Virus record (IMG/VR): IMGVR_UViG_3300010391_000003 | Strand: one strand, 5' to 3' | Origin: an uncultured virus (IMG/VR IMGVR_UViG_3300010391_000003) | Taxonomy: Duplodnaviria; Heunggongvirae; Uroviricota; Caudoviricetes | Length of the DNA stretch: 20,000 bases | In this document: positions 3,165 through 19,496 of the stretch, piece after piece | Numbering within the stretch: position 1 is the first letter of the stretch | Layout of the letters: each line of letters begins with the position of its first letter | Program-made: the position numbers and the translations under genes | The notes under the pieces: generated by a model | Seen by the model: only the letters and a program-made list of their open reading frames with translations | The model's database searches: none | Told to the model about the DNA's origin: nothing

Positions 3165-3257
3165 GTTCATGTGATGTTTTTAGAGACTTTTTATAAGAAA
3201 TTATATATGAATATATTAATTGAAAGAAACCTTACTTGATTGGGAGACGGAATAAAT

Positions 3258-4982
3258 ATGGAAAAAATTATAAACGATTATATAGGAAAAACAGACTGGA
3301 GAGTACACGAAAATGCAAACACATCATATTCAATATCTGGTTTAAAAAGTTATATTGCTGCAAGTATATTGGCAAAAGACTCTCTTTCGAAATTACCAGA
3401 GCCGATAAGAGAAGCACACAAACGAGGAGCTATACATCTTCACGATTTAGACGGTTCTTTATATGTCCCATATTGTTATGGCGCAGACCTTCAGCAACTT
3501 CTTTTAGAGGGTTTAAAGAATCCTGTCGGAAGTAGTTCAACACCTGCAAAACACTTGGATACAGCAATAGACCACATTGTTAATTATATTTATATTTCTC
3601 AATCAGAATTTAATGGAGCACAAGCATTTTCAAATGTTGATACACTTCTTGCACCATTTGTAATAGGAAAAGATTACAAATATGTAAAACAACAAATACA
3701 GAGATTAATATATAATATTTCATATCCGCTAAGAAGTGCTTTTCAAACACCATTCTTTAATGCTTCATTTGATATTATACCTCCTAAACATATGAAAGAT
3801 GAACCTATTGTTGTCGGTGGAAAAACAGACGAGAAATTATCATATGGTGATATGCAAAAAGAAATGGATATGATAAATTCTTCATTTCTTGAATTAATGA
3901 TAAGTGGAGATTCAAAAGGAAAACCATTTACATTTCCAATACCAACATATGGTGTTACAAAAGAACTGTTGAGAAAGGATGATGATGTTACAAGACTTTT
4001 ATATACATTAACAGCCAAATTTGGTTCGCCAAACTTTCAAAATTATATAAAATCTGGAAATGATCCTTCTGATGTTAGAAGTATGTGTTGTAGAATGTCA
4101 TTGGACATTGCAAAGTTGAAATCTCGTGGTCTTTGGAATATGGGAAATAGAACAGGATCTTTGGGAGTAGTCACAATAAATCTAAATCATGCTTCTAAAG
4201 ATGGAGAAGAAAAATTTATAGAAAATATAGATTCTGTATATGATTTATCTGTAGAAGAACTTTTAATAAAACATAAATATATACAAGAGGCATTTGACAG
4301 AGGATTACTTCCATTCACAAGACAATATTTGCCAAATAAAGATCCATTTAGAACATTTTTTAATACAATCGGAATTCACGCTATGAATGAAGCTTGTATA
4401 AATATGTTTGAATCAAATATAGAATCTAATCAAGATTTTGTTGTTGACATTTTAAAACACATAAGACACAGAACTGATGAAACGACAGAAGAAACGGGAC
4501 TCTTGTTTAACTTAGAAGAAACTCCATGTGAAGGTGCTACACGTCGATTAGCAAAACTTGACAAAAAATTAGGACTTCCAACACAGGGAGAAGAATCACC
4601 ATATCTTACAAATTCTACACATTGTCCAGTTAATACAGGATTAGATTGGATACAAAATGTAAGAATCCAGGAGAAGTTTAAACCATTTTATTCTGGTGGA
4701 ACAATATTACATGGATTTATTGGAGAAGAAATATCACCAGAAAGTGCCAAACATATAGTAAAACAGATGACTTGTGAAACAAAAATACCTTATTATAATG
4801 TAACGCCAACATTTTCTCATTGTAATAATCATAGTCATATATCTGGAAATGTACCAATATGCCCGAAGTGTAATGAAGAAACCTTGGTGTACTCACGTGT
4901 GGTTGGATATCTGCAACCCACAATCAAGTGGAGCGACTCCAAAAAAGAAGAATTTAAAGATAGAAAAATGTATAAGATGTGA
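3258..4982 (+). CDS. nrdD: Anaerobic (class III) ribonucleoside-triphosphate reductase, no ATP-cone
   Basis: ENAN, IHLHDL, PYC, GAQAF, FTFPIPT, RSMCCR finger loop, FNLEETPCE, C-terminal CxxH/CxxC and glycyl-radical loop YSRVVGYL. ATG 3258 preferred as start. Confidence 0.95.
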   Translation: MEKIINDYIGKTDWRVHENANTSYSISGLKSYIAASILAKDSLSKLPEPIREAHKRGAIHLHDLDGSLYVPYCYGADLQQLLLEGLKNPVGSSSTPAKHLDTAIDHIVNYIYISQSEFNGAQAFSNVDTLLAPFVIGKDYKYVKQQIQRLIYNISYPLRSAFQTPFFNASFDIIPPKHMKDEPIVVGGKTDEKLSYGDMQKEMDMINSSFLELMISGDSKGKPFTFPIPTYGVTKELLRKDDDVTRLLYTLTAKFGSPNFQNYIKSGNDPSDVRSMCCRMSLDIAKLKSRGLWNMGNRTGSLGVVTINLNHASKDGEEKFIENIDSVYDLSVEELLIKHKYIQEAFDRGLLPFTRQYLPNKDPFRTFFNTIGIHAMNEACINMFESNIESNQDFVVDILKHIRHRTDETTEETGLLFNLEETPCEGATRRLAKLDKKLGLPTQGEESPYLTNSTHCPVNTGLDWIQNVRIQEKFKPFYSGGTILHGFIGEEISPESAKHIVKQMTCETKIPYYNVTPTFSHCNNHSHISGNVPICPKCNEETLVYSRVVGYLQPTIKWSDSKKEEFKDRKMYKM

Positions 4983-5007
4983 AAAAATTACGGTAGATGA
5001 TATAATA

Positions 5008-5415
5008 ATGTTTCTTTTTTATTTTATTTTATTTATTATTTTTATTTATCTAATAATAAAACTTTTAAGCGGAACAAGAGAACTATATATTGATGAGAAT
5101 GGATATTACAGATATGTATATAATCAAAAACTTGTTCATCGAGATGTTGCATATAAATATATTTATAAAAATAATAAACATAAATATCCCCTAAGATTTA
5201 GAAATTATCAGGTACATCATAAAAATAGAAATAAATTAGATAATGATGTTGAAAATTTACAAATTGTCACAAGAGAAGAACACGAAAAAATACACGGAAT
5301 TACAAAAATTAATAGAGAATGGTCTCGATGTAGTTGTTTGGATAAATATGGACAACAAGTAAATCATTGCACAGATTGTGGAAATCATAAATATTTGCCA
5401 GATATTTATCGATAA
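5008..5415 (+). CDS. HNH endonuclease with N-terminal hydrophobic segment
   Basis: YIDENGYYR, LVHRDVA, VHHKNRNKLDNDVENLQIVTREEHEKIH. Likely start ATG 5008 gives MFLFYFILFIIFIYLIIKLL; C-terminal Cys cluster. Confidence 0.8.
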   Translation: MFLFYFILFIIFIYLIIKLLSGTRELYIDENGYYRYVYNQKLVHRDVAYKYIYKNNKHKYPLRFRNYQVHHKNRNKLDNDVENLQIVTREEHEKIHGITKINREWSRCSCLDKYGQQVNHCTDCGNHKYLPDIYR

Positions 5416-5870: not shown

Positions 5871-6014
5871 ATGAAATGTATCAGTCCAGAATGTGAAAAT
5901 GATGCTACTGATTGTTTTTGGTGTGATAAGTGTCTCGATGAATTAGGAAATTATATCGAAGAACATGGTATGGGATTTATTCCATCTTATAAAACAAATA
6001 ACCTTATTAAATAG
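5871..6014 (+). CDS. 47-aa Cys-rich protein related to the C-terminus of 2880..3164
   Basis: MKCISPECENDATDCFWCDKCLDELGNYIEEHGMGFIPSY...; below ORF-track cutoff. Confidence 0.65.
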   Translation: MKCISPECENDATDCFWCDKCLDELGNYIEEHGMGFIPSYKTNNLIK

Positions 6015-6036: not shown

Positions 6037-6222
6037 ATGGGCAGCATTCATCAAGAAGTAAAATTAAAAATAAAATGTCCAAGATGTGGAGAACCATTAT
6101 ATGGTTTTTCAATGTTTGATGATTACAACCAAGAAGATCATACAACTTATTGTAAGAAGTGTAATTTTACAGAATCATTCGACGAAACCTATACAAGAAT
6201 AAATAAGAAGGAAACAACATGA
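6037..6222 (+). CDS. Zinc-ribbon microprotein
   Basis: CPRCG...CKKC. Confidence 0.7.
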   Translation: MGSIHQEVKLKIKCPRCGEPLYGFSMFDDYNQEDHTTYCKKCNFTESFDETYTRINKKETT

Positions 6223-9293: not shown

Positions 9294-9733
9294 TCATTGA
9301 TAAAATGGTAAATATAATACATAGTATTTTTAGCTCATCTCTTAATCACATAACATTTCAAGTAGATGATAGAGAGGGAAGAGAAGATGATGATTATTCA
9401 TTAATATTATGTAAAAACTGTGAAGAATATATAGAAGAATGTGCCTTAGGACAAGTTTATTCAAAATCACATGGAAAATGGAAGTCATTTTCTTCTATTT
9501 ATAAAGAACATATTGGATTTAGCAAACAATTAAGATGGCGTGAAAAATTATATGGAAAACCACTTCCACTTATTCAAAAAATAAAAGCAGCAAGAAAAGT
9601 AAGTCATGACTTATATCCGACACCAAAATTTGGTGGAAAGTATGGCGGAATAAAAGGACATAATATTAGAGAAAAATTTAGAAAAGAAATATTAAAAAGT
9701 ATTAATATTAATTATATACCAAGATATTTATGA
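9290..9733 (+). CDS. Hypothetical protein
   Basis: Start moved to ATG 9290 (ATGA overlap); CKNC...C. Confidence 0.6.
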   Translation: MIIDKMVNIIHSIFSSSLNHITFQVDDREGREDDDYSLILCKNCEEYIEECALGQVYSKSHGKWKSFSSIYKEHIGFSKQLRWREKLYGKPLPLIQKIKAARKVSHDLYPTPKFGGKYGGIKGHNIREKFRKEILKSININYIPRYL

Positions 9734-10335
9734 AAATAAATCTCGGTGGAATAATCCCACTATCTGCAAATGAATGGAAAGATCACGTCTCTGTAGTTGT
9801 GTTCTTCAATGGCTGTCCTTTCCGTTGTTCTTATTGTCATAATCACCAGATGATAGATGCTATAAATTTTGTTGATATAAGAGTTGTCAAAGATGCAATA
9901 GTAAATTCATTACCTTTCATAAATTCTGTGTGCTTTTCTGGTGGCGAACCAACTGCTCAGCCTGAAGCTCTTGAGGAGCTTTTAGCCTTTTCAAAGTCTT
10001 ATGGACTTAAGACAATGATAGAGACGAATGGCTATTTCCCGTCTATCCTTAAGAGATTGTGTGATTATAAGCTTGTTGATATGCTTTATGTTGATATCAA
10101 GACTACAGCGGAAGATTATGACAACTTTACAAAAGCACCAAATTCTTATGAGAATATGATTGAAACACTGCGAATCACAGTTCCTCATACAAAAAGAACA
10201 ACGGTGTTTAAGAATATAAAAATTCCACGATGTTCGCTGATTTATCAGAAAGGTCTGGTAAGATTATCACCAGACAAAACAATGGAAGAATATTCAGAAG
10301 AAGAATTTGAAAATTTAATACATAAAAAGGAATAA
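9730..10335 (+). CDS. nrdG: Radical SAM activase of anaerobic RNR
   Basis: FFNGCPFRCSYCHN (Cx3Cx2C), FSGGEPT, IETNG, YVDIK; NrdD present in the window. Confidence 0.85.
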   Translation: MKINLGGIIPLSANEWKDHVSVVVFFNGCPFRCSYCHNHQMIDAINFVDIRVVKDAIVNSLPFINSVCFSGGEPTAQPEALEELLAFSKSYGLKTMIETNGYFPSILKRLCDYKLVDMLYVDIKTTAEDYDNFTKAPNSYENMIETLRITVPHTKRTTVFKNIKIPRCSLIYQKGLVRLSPDKTMEEYSEEEFENLIHKKE

Positions 10336-10337
10336 TT

Positions 10338-10475
10338 ATGAATAAATGGATATGTTCGAGTTGTCATAAAAGAATGTGCGAAATAGAAGTCAGATTTTTT
10401 GTTTCGGCAACTGAACCAGTCGGATGTTTGTATAAAGAGCCAAATCCTTTCTGGGAATTTATAAAAACACATTAA
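10338..10475 (+). CDS. 45-aa Cys-rich microprotein
   Basis: MNKWICSSCHKRMC...PVGCLY...W. Confidence 0.55.
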   Translation: MNKWICSSCHKRMCEIEVRFFVSATEPVGCLYKEPNPFWEFIKTH

Positions 10476-10537
10476 AAACAAATAACTTTTTATAGATAAA
10501 AATTAATACTGAGATTAAATAGTTAATCGAGGCAAAT

Positions 10538-11032
10538 ATGAGTAAAAAATTTATAATGTTGTTGGTGTTATTATTTCTAATATCACCAGTTTTGGCTTTG
10601 CAACAAACATCAGGAGCAATAAATCTTTCTGTAGAGCCTGGAAATAGTGTAGTAGGAAAATATGGTGTCAGAAACGATGAAAATGTTAGTGTCGACATTA
10701 ATTTCAATGTAACAGGGGATGCTTCAAAATTTATAACTTATGAAAAAGTTGTTACTCTAAATCCGAATGAATTCAGATACATTAATATTACTGCGAATGT
10801 TCCGAAGGATTATGTCGGAAGCAAAAATCTGACAGGAACAATATATGCTCTCAAAGAGGGCAAAAAAGGTGGACAAGTCCAAATTAATATCAGATTAGGA
10901 AAAAACATAAATCTTAATATAGTAGAATCACCTATATCAACACCAAAGGTGAGTGGATTTTCATCATTAATGTTCATAGGCATGATCTTTATGGTCTATG
11001 TCGTGATAAAAATTCGTAAAACGAATAAATAA
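10538..11032 (+). CDS. Exported beta-rich protein with PGF-CTERM-like (SGF) anchor
   Basis: Signal peptide, N-x-S/T sequons, C-terminal VSGF + TM + basic tail. Confidence 0.75.
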   Translation: MSKKFIMLLVLLFLISPVLALQQTSGAINLSVEPGNSVVGKYGVRNDENVSVDINFNVTGDASKFITYEKVVTLNPNEFRYINITANVPKDYVGSKNLTGTIYALKEGKKGGQVQINIRLGKNINLNIVESPISTPKVSGFSSLMFIGMIFMVYVVIKIRKTNK

Positions 11033-11034
11033 AA

Positions 11035-11050
11035 TATGTTTTAAAACATA
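11035..11050. promoter_or_regulatory. Perfect 16-bp palindrome abutting the RBS
   Basis: TATGTTTTAAAACATA immediately before AGGAG. Confidence 0.3.
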
Positions 11051-11061
11051 AGGAGAAATAA

Positions 11062-12032
11062 ATGAATACAAAAATAACAGCAATTTTAATGTCGTTACTC
11101 ATGGTTACAATTTTTGTTCCATCAGCAATGGCATCAGAACAGAGTATTAATCTTTGTGAAAAAGTAATTAATACTGGTGGATCGTGGGGAGTATGTAATC
11201 CTAATGATGCAAATATGGCACAAGGAACATTTACATATAATAATGTAGGTTCAACACTTTCAATTATTGAAGCATCAGCGACAGGATTATCAAGTGATGA
11301 TGGAACAGAATTTTCATTATATATTATAAAGATACAGATTCATCACATGTACTTGCTTCAACAAAATCAGTAAATGTACTTGCAACAGAATTATCTTCTG
11401 GTAATAGTGTAACATTCAATCCAATAGATATAAATACTGGAAATATACCAGCAGGAGACGATATTAATCCAAAAGGAAAGATCTGGATTGTACCATCAGA
11501 AAAGATTAATGTAGATGGAACTCTCGATTGGACAGGATACGCAAATGGAGCAATATTAGAAGATTTCTTATTTGAATCTGATAGTATCGTTCAAACATCG
11601 ACTGATGGATTAACAGTTCAACAGAGAATGGGTGGAATAATTTATACAGCATCTGTGTTGCCTTCTTCAGCATCTTCAGTTGGTAGTGTAACAGTATTAC
11701 AATATGTTCCAACAACAATAGGAATTGCAGCAACTGATGTGAATTTTGGTTCATTATATCAGGGAAGAAGTGGTTCTGGAACATCAACAATTTCAGTAAC
11801 TGAACAATCAGGAACAGATGGATTTAGACCCATAACAGTTGGTTTATCAGTATCTTCAGGAACATGGAATGTTGTTGGAATTACAACTATTATAAATAGT
11901 CTAACTCCAGAAAGTGTAGTTGTCGAGAATACAACACCAGTGACTTCTGTAGCAACTCTAACAGTAAATGTTGGAGCAAATGTTCCAGCAGGAGTATATA
12001 CATCAGAAATAACAGTAAGCGCAACATTTTAA
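11062..12032 (+). pseudogene. Exported surface protein (about 323 aa) split by a 1-nt deletion near 11317-11321
   Basis: The signal-peptide ORF shifts at TTATATATTATAAAGAT. The -1 frame continues (I)YYKDTD...GKIWIVPS...LDW...FLFESD...MGGIIY without a stop to 12032, joining the two ORF-track pieces. Confidence 0.8.
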
Positions 12033-12062
12033 GGATTGAAATATATCCTTAATTTATTTTTT
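12029..12062 (+). terminator. Hairpin plus T-tract
   Basis: TTAAGGAT-8 nt-ATCCTTAA then TTTATTTTTT. Confidence 0.45.
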
Positions 12063-12075
12063 GAGGTATCGAAAT

Positions 12076-12870
12076 ATGAACAAAAATCTTATAATTATTC
12101 TAATCATAATATTATTATTTATTGGTTCAGCTAATGCAATTACAGGGACTGTGACTGTATTACCTAAAAATTCTACACCGACTCCAACTCCTACTCCAAC
12201 TCAGATACTATCATATGGAAGTTCTTCAGGAGGAAGTTCTGGTGGAAGTGGTGTAATAGTTGACGAAAATTTTATCAACATTGAATCACACTACACTATT
12301 GAAAAAGATGTTTCTAGCAGGTATGACACAACCTTCTCATTCAGTGGAACAACAATATACGAAGTTGTTATAAAGAAAACAGAGAATGAAGTATTAGTAT
12401 CTGGTCGTGTTGACGATTTAGTAGCAAGATCGTCAAGAACACCAACTCAGCCTGATGGAGAAGTATATAAATTTGTTAATGCATACATAGGAACAAAGAG
12501 ATTCGGAAGTGCTGAATTGAGATTTAAAGTCCCAGTTTCGTGGACTCTAAATAAGAATATGCAGATGTTGATATGGCAAAATAATGTTTGGATTCCTTTG
12601 GAGACCACAAAATTGAGTGAAGACTCTGAATATGCATATTTTAGTGCAATAACAAATCACTTCACTAATTTTGTAATAGTTGGAAAACAATCTTCAGTAC
12701 CAGAAGTTGTTCCAGTTGTAACAACTCAACCAACTACAGTACCAACAGAAGTAATACAGATAACACCAGTAACAACAGAAGAAACAAAGTCGGGATTTAA
12801 TGCCACTGCAGCAATAGCTTTTGTTTTAATATTAGTGGCAGTTGTATATATATTTATGAGAAAGAAATAA
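12076..12870 (+). CDS. PGF-pre-PGF domain cell-surface protein
   Basis: Signal peptide, (PT)n and G/S linker, VYKFVN...FKVPVSW...W..LET...YAYFSA.T.HF, Thr/Pro linker, KSGF + TM + RKK. Start ATG 12076 after GAGGT. Confidence 0.8.
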   Translation: MNKNLIIILIIILLFIGSANAITGTVTVLPKNSTPTPTPTPTQILSYGSSSGGSSGGSGVIVDENFINIESHYTIEKDVSSRYDTTFSFSGTTIYEVVIKKTENEVLVSGRVDDLVARSSRTPTQPDGEVYKFVNAYIGTKRFGSAELRFKVPVSWTLNKNMQMLIWQNNVWIPLETTKLSEDSEYAYFSAITNHFTNFVIVGKQSSVPEVVPVVTTQPTTVPTEVIQITPVTTEETKSGFNATAAIAFVLILVAVVYIFMRKK

Positions 12871-12906
12871 TACTTCTTTTTCATATTTCTTTTTTTATCA
12901 ATAATC

Positions 12907-12916
12907 TTTATATACT
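12907..12916 (+). promoter_or_regulatory. TATA box, leaderless promoter
   Basis: TTTATATACT exactly 21 nt before ATG 12938; preceded by an oligo-T terminator-like tract. Confidence 0.65.
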
Positions 12917-12937
12917 ATTAGTTTCATATATTTGTCT

Positions 12938-13099
12938 ATGGACTTTAATACAAGACGGAACATAGTGCTGATAGGACTTGTCGTTTTAATATTGTCGACA
13001 CTTGGTATATTTCTTGCTCTTGGAAGAATGGAAGAATCACTATCAATAGAAATGATATTTGGACGAATATATCATATAATTTTCGGGAGATCATTATGA
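12938..13099 (+). CDS. 53-aa single-TM protein
   Basis: MDFNTRRNIVLIGLVVLILSTLGIFLAL...; ATGA overlap with the next gene. Confidence 0.65.
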   Translation: MDFNTRRNIVLIGLVVLILSTLGIFLALGRMEESLSIEMIFGRIYHIIFGRSL

Positions 13100-13686
13100 A
13101 AAAAATATTATTTATATCTCTTTTAATTTTAATTCCCACAGCTTCTTCATATGAGGTAGATTATTCTCACGATATCTGGCATCCTATTAATGCGTCTTCT
13201 TTTATAACTCCAGACAATCCTGTGGTAAATTTAGTTGCTAAAGGTCTCTATTTAGATGATGATGGTAAATTAAGATATAAAAATTTAAAAGTCATTAAGT
13301 GTGAAAATTGTTGGGGAAAAACATGGTGTAAAAATCTTGTCTTCACAAATAATTATGTTTATGATGTTAATATATATGGAGAAGATAAATGGTTAATGCC
13401 AGAACAATATATTTTAGGTGGATTTAATGGTGATTGTGATGATTGGGCAGTAACAGTCGCATCTATTATGTTATCTGGAAATTTAACAGTAGATGACATT
13501 CCACAAGTTGTTCCAGCAAGAGTGATTCTAGGATATTTTGGTGGTCAACGAGATGCTTATGTCGAATATAAACTTCATAATCAGACGTGGATAACATCCA
13601 CAGGATATAATTATGAACAAAAAGTTTCTACTACAATATATACAATTAAAGATGAACAATTTAAGCCACTAATATATTTAAATTAA
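13096..13686 (+). CDS. Exported transglutaminase-like protein
   Basis: Signal peptide, FITPDNPVV, W..P, GDCDDWA, ARVILG...DAYVEY. Confidence 0.75.
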   Translation: MKKILFISLLILIPTASSYEVDYSHDIWHPINASSFITPDNPVVNLVAKGLYLDDDGKLRYKNLKVIKCENCWGKTWCKNLVFTNNYVYDVNIYGEDKWLMPEQYILGGFNGDCDDWAVTVASIMLSGNLTVDDIPQVVPARVILGYFGGQRDAYVEYKLHNQTWITSTGYNYEQKVSTTIYTIKDEQFKPLIYLN

Positions 13687-13696
13687 AGGAGAAATA

Positions 13697-13963
13697 ATGT
13701 CTGATATAATCGAAGCACACAAATATTGTCGAAATAATCGCGAAAATATAACAAAATCAAATAAATGTGGTTGTTTTTGTTGTTTAAAAATATTTAAAAC
13801 ATCAGAAATAACAGAATGGATAGATAGAAGCAATATCGGGAATGATACAGCATTGTGTCCTTATTGTGGTACAGATTCTGTTTTGCCTGAAATTTCAGGA
13901 TATCCAATAACAAAATCATTTCTCAATAAGATGGAAACATATTGGTTCTCAACTATACCATGA
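13697..13963 (+). CDS. Conserved Cys-rich hypothetical protein
   Basis: AHKYC..NR, CGCFCC, EWID, TALCPYCG.DSV; AAGGAG RBS. Confidence 0.8.
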   Translation: MSDIIEAHKYCRNNRENITKSNKCGCFCCLKIFKTSEITEWIDRSNIGNDTALCPYCGTDSVLPEISGYPITKSFLNKMETYWFSTIP

Positions 13964-14214
13964 ACGCAGAATTATTTATGACGATTGCAAATATCGTCTT
14001 TCTTATAGGAACTTTCTTTCTTTTTATGAGAGTTCTTAAAAATCGAGATTCTTTAAAAGATTTTGATAAAATGGGTTCGTTCTTAACATTTTTTGGAATG
14101 CTTTTTTCAACAACATCATTAGTGATACTAAAAATGTGGATATCAATACTTTTCTCAACTCCAACAGTTTTATTTTGGGGATTTGTATTTTTGTTTTCAA
14201 TAAGAAATAAGTAG
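13960..14214 (+). CDS. Small 3-TM membrane protein (PQ-loop/SemiSWEET-like topology)
   Basis: Three hydrophobic segments; ATGA overlap; no literal PQ motif. Confidence 0.6.
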   Translation: MNAELFMTIANIVFLIGTFFLFMRVLKNRDSLKDFDKMGSFLTFFGMLFSTTSLVILKMWISILFSTPTVLFWGFVFLFSIRNK

Positions 14215-14230
14215 CATAAACTTATATAAC
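14207..14230 (+). promoter_or_regulatory. ATAAGTAGCAT element plus TATA box (copy 1)
   Basis: ATAAGTAGCAT-aaa-CTTATATAAC, ending 32 nt before ATG 14263. Confidence 0.55.
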
Positions 14231-14262
14231 ATTGAGACTATTATATTCTAAGGAGTGTAAAT

Positions 14263-14403
14263 ATGTCACATAAATCGTATGTAAAATTAGAAAAGAAAGA
14301 AGAAAAAGCAATCGAAAAAATTTCTGAGGGTTTGAAAGAATTAAAAGATGTGGAAAGAAAAGAAAGAAAATTAGACAAGAAAATGCACAAAATGAGAAAA
14401 TAA
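14263..14403 (+). CDS. 46-aa K/E-rich coiled-coil microprotein
   Basis: AAGGAG RBS; MSHKSYVKLEKKEEKAIEKISEGLKELK... Confidence 0.65.
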   Translation: MSHKSYVKLEKKEEKAIEKISEGLKELKDVERKERKLDKKMHKMRK

Positions 14404-14426
14404 GATTATTTATCATTTTTAACAAT

Positions 14427-14451
14427 ATAAGTAGCATTTAATTTAAATACT
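14427..14451 (+). promoter_or_regulatory. ATAAGTAGCAT element plus TATA box (copy 2), heads the microprotein array
   Basis: ATAAGTAGCAT-ttaa-TTTAAATACT, ending 32 nt before ATG 14484. Confidence 0.55.
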
Positions 14452-14483
14452 ATTACATTCATTATAATACTAGAGTTGATTAT

Positions 14484-14669
14484 ATGGTCAGAGAAGTAAT
14501 GGAAGATGGAAGAAGACATGTTCATATTTTAGCAAGAAGTCTTGAAGCAGCAAAAAATAAAGCCAGACCTGTCAAAAATTTAAAAATAAGTACTGGAAAT
14601 CTTGTCGAAGCCGAAAAACATGAAGAGAATGGAATGAAGACATATTCATTCAGAATAAAGGATGTGTAA
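14484..14669 (+). CDS. Array microprotein
   Basis: 61 aa; ARSLEAAKNKA helix motif. Confidence 0.7.
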   Translation: MVREVMEDGRRHVHILARSLEAAKNKARPVKNLKISTGNLVEAEKHEENGMKTYSFRIKDV

Positions 14670-14671
14670 TT

Positions 14672-14824
14672 ATGGCATATAGAGTAGAAGAACTTGGATT
14701 CCCTCATGTTGAAGTCGGAACATTTACATTTTTGCATAACGCAAGAATCGTTGCAGACGAATATACAAGTAAACATAAGGGTGTAAAAGTGAGAATAGTA
14801 AAATTAATACCAATAAAAAGGTGA
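14672..14824 (+). CDS. Array microprotein (50 aa)
   Basis: MAYRVEELGFPHVEVGTFTFLHNARIVADEY...VRIVK; not in ORF track. Confidence 0.7.
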   Translation: MAYRVEELGFPHVEVGTFTFLHNARIVADEYTSKHKGVKVRIVKLIPIKR

Positions 14825-14828
14825 AATT

Positions 14829-14999
14829 ATGGGAATATATAAAGTAGGAAAAAATTTAAATAGTATAGCAAGATCAGGAACATGGGCAGACACACTTGAA
14901 GAAGCAAAAGATATATTAGCAAAGAAAGAAAAAGGATATCATATATATCACTTAGTTATTGATAAGAAAAAAGATATGATAAAATTTGAGAGATTATAA
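14829..14999 (+). CDS. Array microprotein (56 aa), divergent YKV family member
   Basis: MGIYKVG...ADTLEEAKDIL...GYHIYHL. Confidence 0.7.
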   Translation: MGIYKVGKNLNSIARSGTWADTLEEAKDILAKKEKGYHIYHLVIDKKKDMIKFERL

Positions 15000-15001
15000 A
15001 T

Positions 15002-15223
15002 ATGTCAAATATGTGGGATCTACCAGAACAACATCATCCAATACATGGAAAGAAAAAGAGAAAGCATGTTGAACATCACGAACGTGAAGAACATGAAGAA
15101 AGACCAGAAGAACACTTCGAAAAGGTCGGAAAGGTAATTACAGATGCAGCAATAACAACAGTCGGAATTGGTGTAATTGGTTCGTTGGGAGTAAATTTAA
15201 TAAGTTCATTAAGACCAAAGTAA
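15002..15223 (+). CDS. His/Glu-rich microprotein with C-terminal hydrophobic segment
   Basis: HHPIHGKKKRKHVEHHEREEHEE then a Gly/Ile/Val-rich segment. Confidence 0.7.
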   Translation: MSNMWDLPEQHHPIHGKKKRKHVEHHEREEHEERPEEHFEKVGKVITDAAITTVGIGVIGSLGVNLISSLRPK

Positions 15224-15236
15224 TGAGGATATAAAT

Positions 15237-15458
15237 ATGACAAAATATCAAGTTCTTGGACATGGTGGAATATTCTGGGAAATAACACACATAAAACCTA
15301 AAATATTTGATACATATGAAGAAGCCAAAGAATATGGAGATAGAATTGTTAGTTCATATAAAGACCAACACGGAAAACTTCCTTTTCTAGTATGGTATAA
15401 AATAGTAGAATTAACTAATGTTGGTGCACACTTATTAGAATTAACAAATTTGAGGTAA
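15237..15458 (+). CDS. Array microprotein
   Basis: MTKYQVLGH...FDTYEEAKEYG. Confidence 0.7.
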   Translation: MTKYQVLGHGGIFWEITHIKPKIFDTYEEAKEYGDRIVSSYKDQHGKLPFLVWYKIVELTNVGAHLLELTNLR

Positions 15459-15460
15459 AT

Positions 15461-15676
15461 ATGGGAATAATTGTCGGAAGATGGCTAAAAGATGGAAAAA
15501 ATAAAGTTTTTTCTACTCAATTTAAAACAGCACGTCGTGCAAAAATAATAGCAAATAGACTCGCAAATGAGGCATCAAAAACAGACAAAAATCATGTTTA
15601 TGAAGTTGGTAAACCATTTAGACACGGAGCATTCTGGAGTATTTATATTCATAGAATAAAAGTAGGAAGGTATTAA
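15461..15676 (+). CDS. Array microprotein, basic
   Basis: FKTARRAKIIANRL...WSIYIHR. Confidence 0.7.
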   Translation: MGIIVGRWLKDGKNKVFSTQFKTARRAKIIANRLANEASKTDKNHVYEVGKPFRHGAFWSIYIHRIKVGRY

Positions 15677-15679
15677 AAC

Positions 15680-15844
15680 ATGACAAAATATAAAGTAGCA
15701 CTAGGACACGATCTTCGTGGAATATCATATCATCGAAATATAGAAAGAGCAAGAGAATCGTTAAAGAAAGTCGGAAAACCATACCACATATTTCACTATA
15801 ATGAGCCAACAAAATTCTATGAAGGTGCATGGAGACCAACTTAG
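15680..15844 (+). CDS. YKVAL-family microprotein 1 (54 aa)
   Basis: MTKYKVALGHDLRGISYHRNIERARESLKKVGKPYHIFHYNEPTKFYEGAWRPT. Confidence 0.8.
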   Translation: MTKYKVALGHDLRGISYHRNIERARESLKKVGKPYHIFHYNEPTKFYEGAWRPT

Positions 15845-15853
15845 GGGATAAAT

Positions 15854-16042
15854 ATGACAAAAAGACAACCAGATTATTATAGAGTAAAAGAAGATGGAAG
15901 ATTTTGGGCAACAAAATTTCAAACGAAATTGAGAGCAGAAGAATTTGCAAAAGAAAGACGAAATCTTATTACAGGAACTGGAAAGAAAGGAATATATGTT
16001 TATGCTATAAGAATAAAAAGAAATAAAGATAGATATTGGTAA
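15854..16042 (+). CDS. Array microprotein, basic
   Basis: YYRV...FQTKLRAEEFA...IYVY. Confidence 0.7.
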   Translation: MTKRQPDYYRVKEDGRFWATKFQTKLRAEEFAKERRNLITGTGKKGIYVYAIRIKRNKDRYW

Positions 16043-16058
16043 GAGGAGTGAATAAAAT

Positions 16059-16310
16059 ATGGTAGAATTGTGGTTTAAAGGATTTAAAAGACATTCTGGA
16101 TTTGACAAAACAAAATCTGTAGAACAGAATTTAAAAATAATGTATAAGAATGCGAAACTTAAAAATCCTGCTGATCGATGGAGAAGAGTTGGGAGACAAG
16201 CCACAGCACTTGCAAATTTAACAAAAGATTTTGAAACACAAATCAGAGCAAGAACTGTAGCAAATGAAGCATTCAATAAATTAGAAATACTTCACGAATT
16301 GGGAAAATAA
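16059..16310 (+). CDS. Array microprotein, basic helical
   Basis: GAGGAG RBS; RQATALANLTKD... Confidence 0.7.
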   Translation: MVELWFKGFKRHSGFDKTKSVEQNLKIMYKNAKLKNPADRWRRVGRQATALANLTKDFETQIRARTVANEAFNKLEILHELGK

Positions 16311-16311
16311 T

Positions 16312-16467
16312 ATGACAGTCTATAAAGTAGCTTTAAGATCAGATGTAAGACAATTATCCACACATTACTATCTAAGTACTGCAAGAGCAGCACAAAGACA
16401 AGCAGGTTCAGAATATCACATATATGGTTGGGATTCTGGAAAAAGTGAATGGTATAAGGTGGAATAA
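16312..16467 (+). CDS. YKVAL-family microprotein 2 (51 aa)
   Basis: MTVYKVALRSDVRQLSTHYYLSTARAAQRQAGSEYHIYGWDSGKSEWYKVE. Confidence 0.8.
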   Translation: MTVYKVALRSDVRQLSTHYYLSTARAAQRQAGSEYHIYGWDSGKSEWYKVE

Positions 16468-16469
16468 AT

Positions 16470-16676
16470 ATGACACATTATCCATATGACGAACCAAGTC
16501 CAAGTCACCATTACTTAAAATTTAATGGTAAAAAATATCATTGGATTAGAACAGTTAAAGGAAAATCTGCAGCAGAAAATATAAAAATACAATATAAAAA
16601 GACAGGAAGTCTCATAAGAATAGTACCATCTGGAGTAAGAGGATGGTATAAGGTTTATGTATGGTATTTAAAATGA
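16470..16676 (+). CDS. Array microprotein, basic
   Basis: FNGKKY...KSAAE...G.LIRIV...YKVYV. Confidence 0.7.
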   Translation: MTHYPYDEPSPSHHYLKFNGKKYHWIRTVKGKSAAENIKIQYKKTGSLIRIVPSGVRGWYKVYVWYLK

Positions 16677-16686
16677 AGGAGTAAAT

Positions 16687-16851
16687 ATGGCAAATTTTAA
16701 AGTGGCATTAACACCAAAAGGTAGAGCACATTCTGAACACAAATTACTTAGAAGAGCAATAAAATCGACGCATGAAGTTATATTCAGAAGTGGAAAGATG
16801 TATAAGATTTATCAATGGAGTCCATTAAATAAAAAATGGATAAGAGTATAA
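16687..16851 (+). CDS. YKVAL-family microprotein 3 (54 aa)
   Basis: MANFKVALTPKGRAHSEHKLLRRAIKSTHEVIFRSGKMYKIYQWSPLNKKWIRV; AAGGAG RBS. Confidence 0.8.
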   Translation: MANFKVALTPKGRAHSEHKLLRRAIKSTHEVIFRSGKMYKIYQWSPLNKKWIRV

Positions 16852-16854
16852 ATT

Positions 16855-17043
16855 ATGCCAAAATCAAAAACAAAAGAATCAATTTTGTGGAATGTCTTTG
16901 ACAGACGTGATAGAGAAAAAGATCATATCGGTGTAATTAGAGCTGAAACAAAATCTGATGCAAAAGCAAAAGCTGTCAAGAAATATGGAAAATATTCTGA
17001 TGTTAAGAAAATGCCATGGGGACAAACATGGATATATAAATAA
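16855..17043 (+). CDS. Array microprotein, basic
   Basis: WNVF...IGVIRAETKSDAKAKAVKKYG. Confidence 0.7.
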   Translation: MPKSKTKESILWNVFDRRDREKDHIGVIRAETKSDAKAKAVKKYGKYSDVKKMPWGQTWIYK

Positions 17044-17053
17044 AAAATAAATT

Positions 17054-17218
17054 ATGGCAAACTATAAAGTTGCATTATCAGCAGATGTTCGTGGTGTTTC
17101 TGTCCACAACGATTTAAAACCTGCAAGACAATCACAGAAAAAGCACGGAAACAAATATAAAATATTCAGATGGATAGGTTCATCTGGAGAAAAAGGATAT
17201 TGGTCTGAAATGAGATGA
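17054..17218 (+). CDS. YKVAL-family microprotein 4 (54 aa)
   Basis: MANYKVALSADVRGVSVHNDLKPARQSQKKHGNKYKIFRWIGSSGEKGYWSEMR. Confidence 0.8.
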   Translation: MANYKVALSADVRGVSVHNDLKPARQSQKKHGNKYKIFRWIGSSGEKGYWSEMR

Positions 17219-17221
17219 ATT

Positions 17222-17377
17222 ATGTTATTACTTGGTGCAACACTTAGAATCATCAGAGATGATTTAGATGAAGCAGTACACGGAAGAAATCCTCTCAAGA
17301 AAAAGTGTGAGTGGTGTAAAGACTTATATAATACAAATCTTAATGAAAGACAAAGAAAGTTAATATATGGAAGATAA
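17222..17377 (+). CDS. Last array microprotein (51 aa)
   Basis: MLLLGATLRIIRDDLDEAVHGRNPLKKKCEWCK...; the only array member with Cys. Confidence 0.6.
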   Translation: MLLLGATLRIIRDDLDEAVHGRNPLKKKCEWCKDLYNTNLNERQRKLIYGR

Positions 17378-17419
17378 AATTTCTAATATTTAAGTCTATT
17401 TGTTTTTTATACATTTCTC

Positions 17420-17562
17420 AATTATGTCATAATTAGGGGACAATTATGGTATAATTTTTAAGAGTTCTTAATGATTAATACTGTTAGTAAAACTAAAAAT
17501 TCTTATATTCAACACAAAACTTTATATACTCTTAAAATCAATACCATAATTATACCTAAATT
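17420..17562. promoter_or_regulatory. Cytochrome gene promoter with repeated AATTAT-N3-ATAATT palindromes
   Basis: AATTATGTCATAATT (17420), AATTATGGTATAATT (17442), TATA box TTTATATACT (17521), degenerate copies at 17537 and 17548. Confidence 0.55.
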
Positions 17563-17622
17563 AAACCAAAATCAGAAAAGGTTTAATGAGGGCAGATAAA
17601 AAGAATAAAGGAGAAAAGAATT

Positions 17623-18807
17623 ATGAACAAGAAAATGTTAATAGTCATTGCCCTAGTAGGCATAGGACTATGGGCTCTCCCTCAGACAATGTCATTGTTT
17701 GCAGGACAGCATAGTTTTGTCAATATTGACGCAACTGGAAACCAGATTAATTGTGTAAAATGTCACGGTGATGTTCAGTCAGAACTATCTGGAACAGCAG
17801 TAAATGCAAAAACTGGAACAGTTACACCACATGCAACATTCAAGTGTGAATATTGTCATAGGATCGAAGCAGGAGCAGCATCAGGTGATAATGCTTATGC
17901 AATTGTAACTTATACCAATGTTTCACCAACAGTATCAGGTATAAAGAACATGAGAACCATCGCAATTTCAATGGCAGATTTCGAAGAAGAAAACTTCCCA
18001 ACGACCATCACAAATGATGTTACAACCATAGCACAGGTTGAAGCCGCATGGGGTAAAAAGTTTGCACTCGCATACGGTGGCAAGGCTCAGGCAGCACTGA
18101 GTCCAAAATCAGGAACTTATGTATCATCAGGAGTAACATATACGATTGGTTCAGAAACAGACACTGGAGTCTTAAGTATAGCTAATGAATATGAAAAATC
18201 ACTATACAATACAAGCACCAATCCAGGCACTCCTTATGATACATCAGCAAGAAAGACGGAAGGTATGATTTTGAATAAACAACCAGGAGATATTGGCAAT
18301 TGGGCAGCAAGTTCAAGATATTTCACACCAAACCTTTATGATGTAGGTTCAAAAGCAGTTAATCCAGGTAGCGAATATCACGCAGCAAGTCTCGTCTCTT
18401 GTCTAGAATGTCATGGTGGAGCAGAACCACTTGGTCACTATAGTAGAATATTAGATGGTGAAAAGACACAATCATGCGAACAGTGCCACTATGGTTCGAC
18501 AAATAGATGGGTTGAACTTGGTGCAGGTGGATTTGGTCTTCTTGGCGGATCTGACACTGGTGCAACAGAAGCACACAAAGAGTTCCAACTAACAGATGAT
18601 GGTATGACAAGACAGGTTGCAGTTACTGGTGGAAATGCAAGTAATGGTGCTTGTGTAGCATGTCATACTCACGTAGCAGTAGATATTAAATATCAGAAAC
18701 CATCTGAATATCAATTTGATGTAAACTTCTTTGATGATGGAAGCGAAGGAATAGGAGGATATACAATTGGTGGAACAACATATACATACAGTGGAACACC
18801 AAGATAA
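17623..18807 (+). CDS. Exported pentaheme c-type cytochrome ('FAGQH' N-terminus)
   Basis: Signal/TM segment; CVKCH, CEYCH, CLECH, CEQCH, CVACH; several extra His as potential distal ligands; AAGGAG RBS. Confidence 0.9.
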   Translation: MNKKMLIVIALVGIGLWALPQTMSLFAGQHSFVNIDATGNQINCVKCHGDVQSELSGTAVNAKTGTVTPHATFKCEYCHRIEAGAASGDNAYAIVTYTNVSPTVSGIKNMRTIAISMADFEEENFPTTITNDVTTIAQVEAAWGKKFALAYGGKAQAALSPKSGTYVSSGVTYTIGSETDTGVLSIANEYEKSLYNTSTNPGTPYDTSARKTEGMILNKQPGDIGNWAASSRYFTPNLYDVGSKAVNPGSEYHAASLVSCLECHGGAEPLGHYSRILDGEKTQSCEQCHYGSTNRWVELGAGGFGLLGGSDTGATEAHKEFQLTDDGMTRQVAVTGGNASNGACVACHTHVAVDIKYQKPSEYQFDVNFFDDGSEGIGGYTIGGTTYTYSGTPR

Positions 18808-18884: not shown

Positions 18885-19496
18885 ATGAAAATGAGGACAA
18901 TAGCACTAATATTTCTTTTAATTTTAATACCTATTTCAAGTGCTATACAACTTGATATAAATCATAAAGAGGTATATTGTTTTAATTGTCATGGTGGTTC
19001 CCAAGGATATTCTGTTGGACAAGATGAATATTGTGGTGATTGTCATTCATTATATTCAGGAAATCAAAATTTTAAAGAACAACACGAAGCAATATCGTGT
19101 AAAGGTTGTCATAAGACATATAGTTTGGAAACCTTTCATCCAGTACATAAAAATATTTCTTGTAATACATGTCATATAGATAATACACTTCCAGATAATA
19201 AATATTATGATTGTCTATCTTGTCATATTTCTGGATTACATTCTACTCATTTAGAAAAATCATGTGAAACCTGTCATCAAAATACAATCTCACCAAAACC
19301 TACTTTAGAAGTTATACAAAAAACTACACAAAATTGTGATGAAGATGGTTGTTGGGAAGAAATTGTATATGAAAATAATATAAACGAAACAAAATCTATA
19401 AATACTTCAAAACCAATTACTAATTACAAAAGGTTCACCATTTTACAGATTTTGGTGAACATATACGAAAAAATAATAGGTGATATATATGGGTAA
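18885..19496 (+). CDS. Exported hexaheme c-type cytochrome
   Basis: Signal peptide; CFNCH, CGDCH, CKGCH, CNTCH, CLSCH, CETCH within about 100 aa. Confidence 0.88.
   Translation: MKMRTIALIFLLILIPISSAIQLDINHKEVYCFNCHGGSQGYSVGQDEYCGDCHSLYSGNQNFKEQHEAISCKGCHKTYSLETFHPVHKNISCNTCHIDNTLPDNKYYDCLSCHISGLHSTHLEKSCETCHQNTISPKPTLEVIQKTTQNCDEDGCWEEIVYENNINETKSINTSKPITNYKRFTILQILVNIYEKIIGDIYG

Follow-up and report, generated by a model that had tools for sequence, protein, structure and literature searches.

A multicopy orphan family of small proteins in an accessory region of mobile-element-like DNA

Proteins of the Sso7d, Cren7 and MC1 types are ~50-90 amino acids (aa) long, strongly basic and rich in beta structure, and carry conserved aromatic and basic residues. 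Small size, strong basicity, beta content and conserved aromatic and basic residues are also found in a family of proteins encoded in a 20,000-nucleotide (nt) stretch of DNA from an uncultured virus assigned to the Caudoviricetes (IMG/VR record IMGVR_UViG_3300010391_000003); this whole stretch is referred to below as the window. The window holds five paralogues of one real protein family, kept at the protein level, and the family is an orphan that was recognised by no library searched. It differs from the Sso7d/Cren7/MC1 type in having no sequence or fold match to it, such proteins being absent from the results of the structure searches, and its predicted beta-beta-alpha-beta-beta arrangement has a topology different from that of the SH3-like barrel. 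Anti-CRISPR and other anti-defence proteins provide a further comparison: they too are small alpha/beta proteins of narrow distribution encoded in clusters of tiny genes on mobile elements, whereas the window family is basic, consists of old paralogues under purifying selection, and gave non-significant anti-CRISPR matches.

The families of Borg and related archaeal extrachromosomal elements that occur in several diverged copies lying close together, on a low-GC (guanine plus cytosine) element that is coded on one strand and bears metabolic genes such as those of multihaem cytochromes, are another close parallel (PMC12660748). In the available part of that article the multiple copies are attributed to duplication followed by divergence, and the families treated are deubiquitinase-like metalloproteases, glycoconjugate enzymes, capsid-like proteins and TnpB; in its main text the terms 'small protein' and 'microprotein' have 0 occurrences. 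The proteins in the window differ in being 50-60 aa long and unannotated, and the window is no more than a candidate for a Borg or for an element with a Methanoperedens host. Overall, the system amounts to an orphan family of small proteins, present in several copies in the accessory part of a mobile element.

Five paralogues of one protein family

An earlier reading of the window from its letters alone (the original prediction) had pointed to four open reading frames (ORFs) of 51-54 aa, starting at 15680, 16312, 16687 and 17054, which share a 'YKVAL' motif. All four were found on the + strand as described, the motif was seen in their alignment, and their mutual similarity lay above that of shuffled controls in all six pairs (Smith-Waterman z-scores 7.1-18.3; 0/200 shuffles reached the observed score). 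The number of copies is five, however, since an ORF starting at 14829 had been overlooked (Table 1). This divergent copy is similar to the 15680 copy (z 7.8; 0/200 shuffles reached the score) and has a sister or orthologue on another contig, P0039 (support 100/94). A family hidden Markov model (HMM) was run unfiltered against 546 ORFs, these being all those of at least 30 aa in the window and in six related loci (L001-L006). It found 14 members at E <= 1.8e-13, the next best match being at 0.03; this match lies inside a 373-aa ORF, and L005 and L006, loci from a metagenome scan, were therefore rejected as carriers of members. The first HMM recovered three members outside its build set (E 1e-8, 8.9e-8 and 8e-7), while the scores of the 14829 copy (E 2.8e-20 and 1.8e-13) are not independent, as the profiles include it.

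Table 1. Positions of the family members, of the surrounding cassette and of other genes in the window
Feature	Positions	Strand	Remarks
Fifth, divergent family member, 56 aa	14829-14999	+	Lacks the conserved His
15680-type member, 54 aa	15680-15844	+	94% identical to P0002 (295,108-bp contig)
16312-type member, 51 aa	16312-16467	+	Nearest relatives P0034 (60% identity) and L003 79-234 (57%)
16687-type member, 54 aa	16687-16851	+	80% identical to L004 666-830
17054-type member, 54 aa	17054-17218	+	In a 12-row clade, support 99/99
Cassette of 15 small genes, 50-83 aa	14484-17377	+	Gaps 1-16 nt; 13/15 products basic
15002-type protein, 71-73 aa	15002-15223 (window); 4123-4338 (L002)		34% identity
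Gene after 15680 copy, 62 aa	15854-16042	+	Net charge +11; 3 relatives only
16059-type basic protein, 83 aa	16059-16310	+	20 non-window clusters at 61-73% identity
Gene after 16312 copy, 68 aa	16470-16676	+	Net charge +10; no family-HMM match; no L001-L006 homologue
Gene after 16687 copy, 62 aa	16855-17043	+	Net charge +9; family HMM E = 11; no L001-L006 homologue
Gene after 17054 copy, last of cassette, 51 aa	17222-17377	+	No L001-L006 homologue
dCMP (deoxycytidine monophosphate)-deaminase-like protein	1882-2343	+
NrdD	3240-4982	+	Pfam E 6e-151
HNH endonuclease domain	within ORF 4849-5415	+	Pfam HNH_3, E 4e-9
Radical-SAM (S-adenosylmethionine) NrdG-type activase	9730-10335	+
Two multihaem cytochromes	17623-18807 and 18885-19496	+

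The starts of the four ORFs first noticed are 632, 375 and 367 bp apart, so that the spacing given for the last three was correct. Also borne out was the claim that their DNA has diverged beyond the first codons: the paralogues are repeat-like in DNA only over ~43 nt at the start codon (67-74% identity), because the conserved N-terminus is encoded there, and the synonymous divergence (dS) among the window paralogues, ~0.9-1.4, is saturated, which makes their ratios of nonsynonymous to synonymous divergence (dN/dS) uninformative. Ratios could be read in comparisons with orthologues in the related loci, where dS was 0.5-1.3. By the Nei-Gojobori method, dN/dS was 0.07 and 0.17 for the 17054 copy against its orthologues in L001 and L002, respectively, 0.20 for the 16687 copy against that in L004, and 0.39 for the 16312 copy against that in L003, values that indicate constraint at the protein level. 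Judged by these sequence comparisons, the family ORFs are real genes and their subfamilies are under purifying selection. The opposite reading, that the ORFs are not genes and that their similarity is a leftover of DNA repeats, could appeal to their shortness and A+T-richness, but it is contradicted by the orthologue ratios at these dS values, by the restriction of DNA similarity to the first ~43 nt, by a confident fold prediction and by the existence elsewhere of ~24 clusters of proteins of the same length; its probability is close to negligible.

The AlphaFold2 model of the 15680 copy, obtained from a 19-row alignment, has a predicted local distance difference test score (pLDDT) of 89.4 and a beta-beta-alpha-beta-beta order, with strands at residues 4-7, 16-18, 36-41 and 50-53 and a helix at 21-31; the 16687 copy has a four-residue insert after the helix. 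Across 42 members, the most conserved positions are K5 (42), A24 (41), Y35 (40), V6, H18 and G32 (39 each) and W50 (38), together with an aromatic residue at positions 4 (41) and 38 (42). The Arg, Ser and His that had been called invariant do occur in all four of the copies first noticed (R13, S16 and H18); in the wider set the first two are conserved as classes, position 13 being basic in 40 members (33 Arg, 7 Lys) and position 16 Ser or Thr in 38 (33 and 5, respectively), and the His is present in 39. To go by how residues alternate in each strand, and not by coordinates, K5, S16 and H18 would point away from the helix, beside the conserved aromatic residues.

As the original prediction had said, the family is not one that can be recognised: no significant match was found in Pfam, PHROGs, PADLOC, NCBIfam, the PDB sequences or three structure libraries. 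In the first four, none of the 15 cassette proteins scored above cut-off, and the best matches from PHROGs were families of unknown function (E 0.0019 and 0.0024). The best E in a profile search of PDB sequences was 0.83 (AcrIIA14), and ESM Atlas returned no named lead (best score 0.87). The family was not mentioned in the literature text searched, which was available in part; supplementary subfamily tables could list it under a number. Two named families came up below their cut-offs. Archaeal chromatin protein MC1 (PF05854) matched 1/42 members, at E 0.046, which is not above its cut-off. Ribosomal protein L10 (PF00466) matched 5/42 members at E <= 1, all of them of the 17054 type and closely related to one another, residues 2-39 aligning with profile positions 18-54. 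The likeness is to the N-terminal beta-alpha-beta unit of L10, in which a hydrophobic strand is followed by an Arg-Gly loop, a basic helix and a further strand; the best member reached 16.8 bits (E 0.0071) as against a Pfam gathering cut-off of 22.8 bits. When two alignments of the family (A5 and A3) were compared by hhalign with L10 N-terminal domains, using an L10 alignment of only 4 rows (from genomes G001, G002, G004 and G005), the probabilities were 0.27% and 0.87%. A relationship to L10 was rejected on both counts, and the likeness was taken as a chance one involving a common supersecondary unit.

Members of the family come only from a limited group of related metagenome contigs and make up ~24 short clusters. 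In a word-indexed search, 20/23 candidates were at E <= 0.01, and 4 of these 20 were the window's own. An exhaustive profile search of 1.84 billion representative proteins gave 28 matches at E <= 0.001, 24 of which were 49-64 aa long; the other four, 545-972 aa long and each matched over 4-7 stretches, were judged from their sequence to be repeat proteins and spurious as matches, and no fused or longer form of the family was seen in this search. Scans of species genomes and of IMG/VR with 17054-type patterns confirmed 0/30 and 0/270 pattern matches, respectively, and tblastn against phage and plasmid records gave no family match. In a maximum-likelihood tree of the 42 members the five window copies required 5 label changes. 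Those at 14829, 15680, 16687 and 17054 each had a well-supported sister or clade from other contigs, while the placement of the 16312 copy was not resolved. The closest relative of every window copy is a protein from another contig; the copies therefore represent old subfamilies and not a recent local duplication. The 17054 type is the most widespread and best conserved of them.

A variable cassette between conserved anchors

The family genes lie in a cassette of small genes (Table 1), between the gene for the NrdG-type activase and those for the multihaem cytochromes. In locus L002 the order is the NrdG gene (65.5% identity), homologues of 14484, 15002 and 16059, one 17054-type gene, a small gene and a cytochrome gene. 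The distance from the end of the NrdG gene to the start of the cytochrome gene is 1.8 kb in L002 as against 7.3 kb in the window; measured over the same anchors (9730-17623 in the window, 3051-5423 in L002), the window is 5.5 kb longer. Its extra DNA holds secreted or membrane-looking proteins at 10538-13686 and 11 more small genes. The shared backbone order and the unequal span thus define a variable cassette between conserved anchors. In 4/4 loci a 17054-type gene precedes a homologous multihaem cytochrome gene by one to three genes. The number of family copies per element ranges from 1 to 5: one in L002, two in L001 (three genes apart), two adjacent ones in L004 (666-830 and 843-998), and four in L003, where three consecutive copies (79-234, 235-417 and 424-612) are followed by one other gene and the fourth copy. 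This last, a 17054-type gene at L003 789-951, has its frame broken by +1 within a stretch of seven A residues, after which the protein continues intact in the next frame; the break could be an assembly error or a pseudogene.

The original prediction had described the copies as never adjacent, and had read this as a modular array in which a constant unit alternates with a variable partner. The description is true of the window. The chance that no two copies are adjacent is, however, p = 462/3003 = 0.154 for 5 of 15 genes (p = 0.119 for 4 of 9), so that non-adjacency in the window is no more than expected by chance, and adjacent copies are found in L003 and L004. Neither is the alternation conserved, L002 having a single copy, nor do the partners recur: the four immediate downstream genes (15854, 16470, 16855 and 17222) have a homologue in L001-L006 in 0/4 cases, and the slot after the 17054-type gene is filled by a different gene in each of L001, L002 and L003. 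The modular array was thus not upheld; no functional pairing rule lies behind the alternation, which, like the 367-375-bp period, is an accident of local gene order.

Most cassette neighbours of the family genes encode basic proteins (net charge +4 to +12). Three of the 10 non-family cassette genes (14484, 15002 and 16059) have homologues in the loci retrieved. None of the partner ORFs could be taken as a hidden member of the family, the unfiltered family HMM giving E >= 8.3 for every one. The 15854 protein was considered separately, its AlphaFold2 model being beta-beta-alpha-beta (pLDDT 75.8); it was rejected as a relative on an hhalign probability of 0.07%, and a similar order of strands and helix does not prove common descent. 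Its best match in the wide VIA-align search was to generic alpha/beta domains at Z 5.0, and by the tool's own note values under 8 are common among unrelated folds. The targets common to its list and to that of the family model were a topoisomerase III domain, ClpS and 2mhe.

The only recurring neighbour of the family genes is the 16059 type, with copies in the window, in L001 (704-949) and in L002 (4746-4991). In the window and in L002 it immediately precedes a family gene, and in L001 it stands one gene upstream. Its proteins are 80-86 aa long and better conserved than the family itself: across 20 sequences, 28 columns are invariant. Neither Pfam nor the other libraries gave a match to it, the number of hits in IMG/VR was 0, and seven matches of 11-21 residues in unrelated bacterial genomes were judged spurious. 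The clusters of the 15680-type, 15854 and 16059 proteins list contigs of the same size and source (913, JGI; 1428, ENA; 4740, Logan), and four cluster pairs have identical longest-contig entries (P0046/P0069, P0051/P0063, P0053/P0065 and P0018/P0071, for contigs of 913, 1428, 4740 and 18036, respectively), which points to neighbouring genes on those contigs too. To judge from these matching cluster records, the three-gene block 15680-15854-16059 may recur on other contigs. The 15002-type protein has a charged N-terminal half rich in His, Glu and Lys, and a hydrophobic, glycine-rich C-terminal segment that is probably a membrane anchor. The long antisense ORFs of the region are a product of the purine-rich coding strand; Pfam found 0 families in the four longest. 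In L001, tiny zinc-ribbon-like ORFs (488-694, 952-1086 and 1264-1455) are placed between the family members.

Candidate functions of the family

The best explanation found is that the members are small basic nucleic-acid-binding proteins in a fast-changing accessory cassette, a tentative reading to which we give a probability of about 0.4. They would act as regulators of the element or as proteins of a nucleoid or packaging type. The binding surface would be the face of the sheet left free by the helix, with K5, the basic residue 13, S/T16, H18 and the aromatic residues of strands 1 and 3; the five old paralogues would differ in their targets, and the alternation with other small genes would be a by-product of gene turnover in the variable cassette. 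Nucleic-acid binders with varied specificity were among the examples offered by the original prediction, and in this the two agree; the adaptor/effector pairing offered alongside did not hold up. The support so far is indirect, consisting of the isoelectric points of the family (9.1-11.2), with net charges of +2 to +11 in the five window copies, and of the conserved basic and aromatic residues.

Several observations weigh against this explanation. No known nucleic-acid-binding family or fold was matched in the libraries searched. With the family model, Foldseek against the PDB gave 0 matches at E <= 0.001, BFVD likewise 0 at E <= 0.001 (best E 0.25), and the wide VIA-align search returned generic alpha/beta domains at a best Z of 3.9, again under 8. 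Basic charge is common in A+T-rich, lysine-rich proteomes and is thus weak evidence for nucleic-acid binding, and the net charge of the 16312 copy is only +2. For the conserved Lys, Arg, Ser and His cluster, a small phosphorylated ligand or a protein partner would be just as good a candidate for binding. In addition, any assignment of the window to a host or to a type of element is provisional.

If the paralogues were anti-defence or host-takeover factors, each would bind and block a host protein of its own, such as a defence or regulatory factor, in the way of many small proteins that mobile elements encode in clusters. Such a role would fit a cluster of unannotated small genes on a contig resembling a mobile element, a family limited to related contigs and a copy number that varies from 1 to 5 among elements, and the searches contained two non-significant matches, to AcrIF9 (VIA-align Z 2.5) and to AcrIIA14 (at the E of 0.83 given above), which can serve as leads only. 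It is nonetheless unlikely: counter-defence genes usually turn over rapidly, whereas these paralogues are old and selection on each subfamily is purifying (dN/dS 0.07-0.39); their strong basicity contrasts with the acidity of many DNA-mimic inhibitors; and no significant similarity was found to any anti-CRISPR or PADLOC model. The same conserved residues would be put to another use if the protein were an oligomer that binds a small phosphorylated ligand, for instance a nucleotide or signalling nucleotide, or a minimal enzyme acting on one; K5, R/K13, S/T16, H18 and the aromatic residues would then form a pocket between subunits. Four conserved polar or charged residues plus Tyr and Trp in 54 aa do exceed the needs of a simple fold, and the copy number is variable; with no match to any nucleotide-binding fold or family, and with a 14829-type subfamily that lacks the His, we regard this possibility as very improbable.

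The pairing of a constant adaptor with a variable downstream gene, in the manner of an adaptor and effector or of a toxin and antitoxin, would account for the fact that each of the 5/5 window copies is followed by a non-family small gene after a gap of 2-9 nt, and that this gene is different at every copy and in every related locus; the block that may recur with the 15680 type would also be consistent with it. The adjacent family genes of L003 and L004, the single copy of L002, the lack of recurrence of the downstream genes in the six loci and the chance level of non-adjacency all argue otherwise. No two genes kept together in related elements, as a type II toxin-antitoxin pair would be, were seen among the four downstream genes in L001-L006. 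PADLOC found a toxin or antitoxin domain in 0/15 cassette proteins at E <= 0.1, and Pfam and NCBIfam found none at curated cut-offs. A complex prediction for the 15854 protein with the 15680 copy scored 0.00, which, the controls not having been run, is evidence neither way. Paired modules are accordingly a very unlikely explanation.

Nucleic-acid binding could also be taken further. The family may be a new minimal beta-beta-alpha-beta-beta module for recognising nucleic acids or nucleotides, belonging to a lineage of archaeal extrachromosomal elements, whose paralogues read different targets and which, together with the 16059-type protein, would form a control layer encoded by the element. The multihaem cytochrome genes would be an example of what is controlled; a 17054-type copy lies just upstream of such a gene in 4/4 loci. 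In this extended form the proposal is doubtful, and distinctly improbable as a whole.

The window as a whole and its significance

The window proteins are encoded on a 74,890-bp contig. All credible window genes are on the + strand, the GC content is low (0.23-0.38 in 1-kb windows) and the cumulative GC skew climbs steadily along the window. Over its whole length, Rfam gave 0 families and a transfer RNA search 0 genes; sigma-70-type promoter matches numbered 21 as against 19.4 in shuffled sequence, in a scan that did not include archaeal promoters. The window resembles extrachromosomal elements and viruses of methane-oxidising archaea as these are presented in the available parts of two articles (10.1101/2023.08.02.551345 and PMC12660748). 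The traits weighed in the comparison with a Borg or other Methanoperedens element were low GC, one-strand coding, NrdD and NrdG, and two multihaem cytochromes, and such an element is a candidate only. The relatives of NrdD found in a pattern-limited genome scan were from Bathyarchaeota (41-42% identity) and Caldisericales-type bacterial genomes (39-43%), with no methane-oxidising archaeon among them; the host assumed in the original prediction is therefore not established. No close relative of the cytochrome was found in species genomes. The ORF with the HNH domain shares ~130 nt with the 3' end of nrdD, read in a different frame; it may encode a homing-type endonuclease beside the reductase gene, with its true start perhaps further downstream. 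Tiny ORFs with paired Cys-x-x-Cys motifs, resembling zinc ribbons, also occur in the window at 5871-6014, 6037-6222, 10338-10475 and 13697-13963.

Elements of this kind consist mostly of unannotated genes, and genes as short as these often fall below length cut-offs. The family now has a defined signature and falls into five subfamilies, with a confidently predicted fold, purifying selection on its sequences and a constant place upstream of a cytochrome gene; the tempting over-reading of a regular alternation has been removed. Together with its more conserved 16059-type companion, it provides two tractable targets of 50-80 aa.

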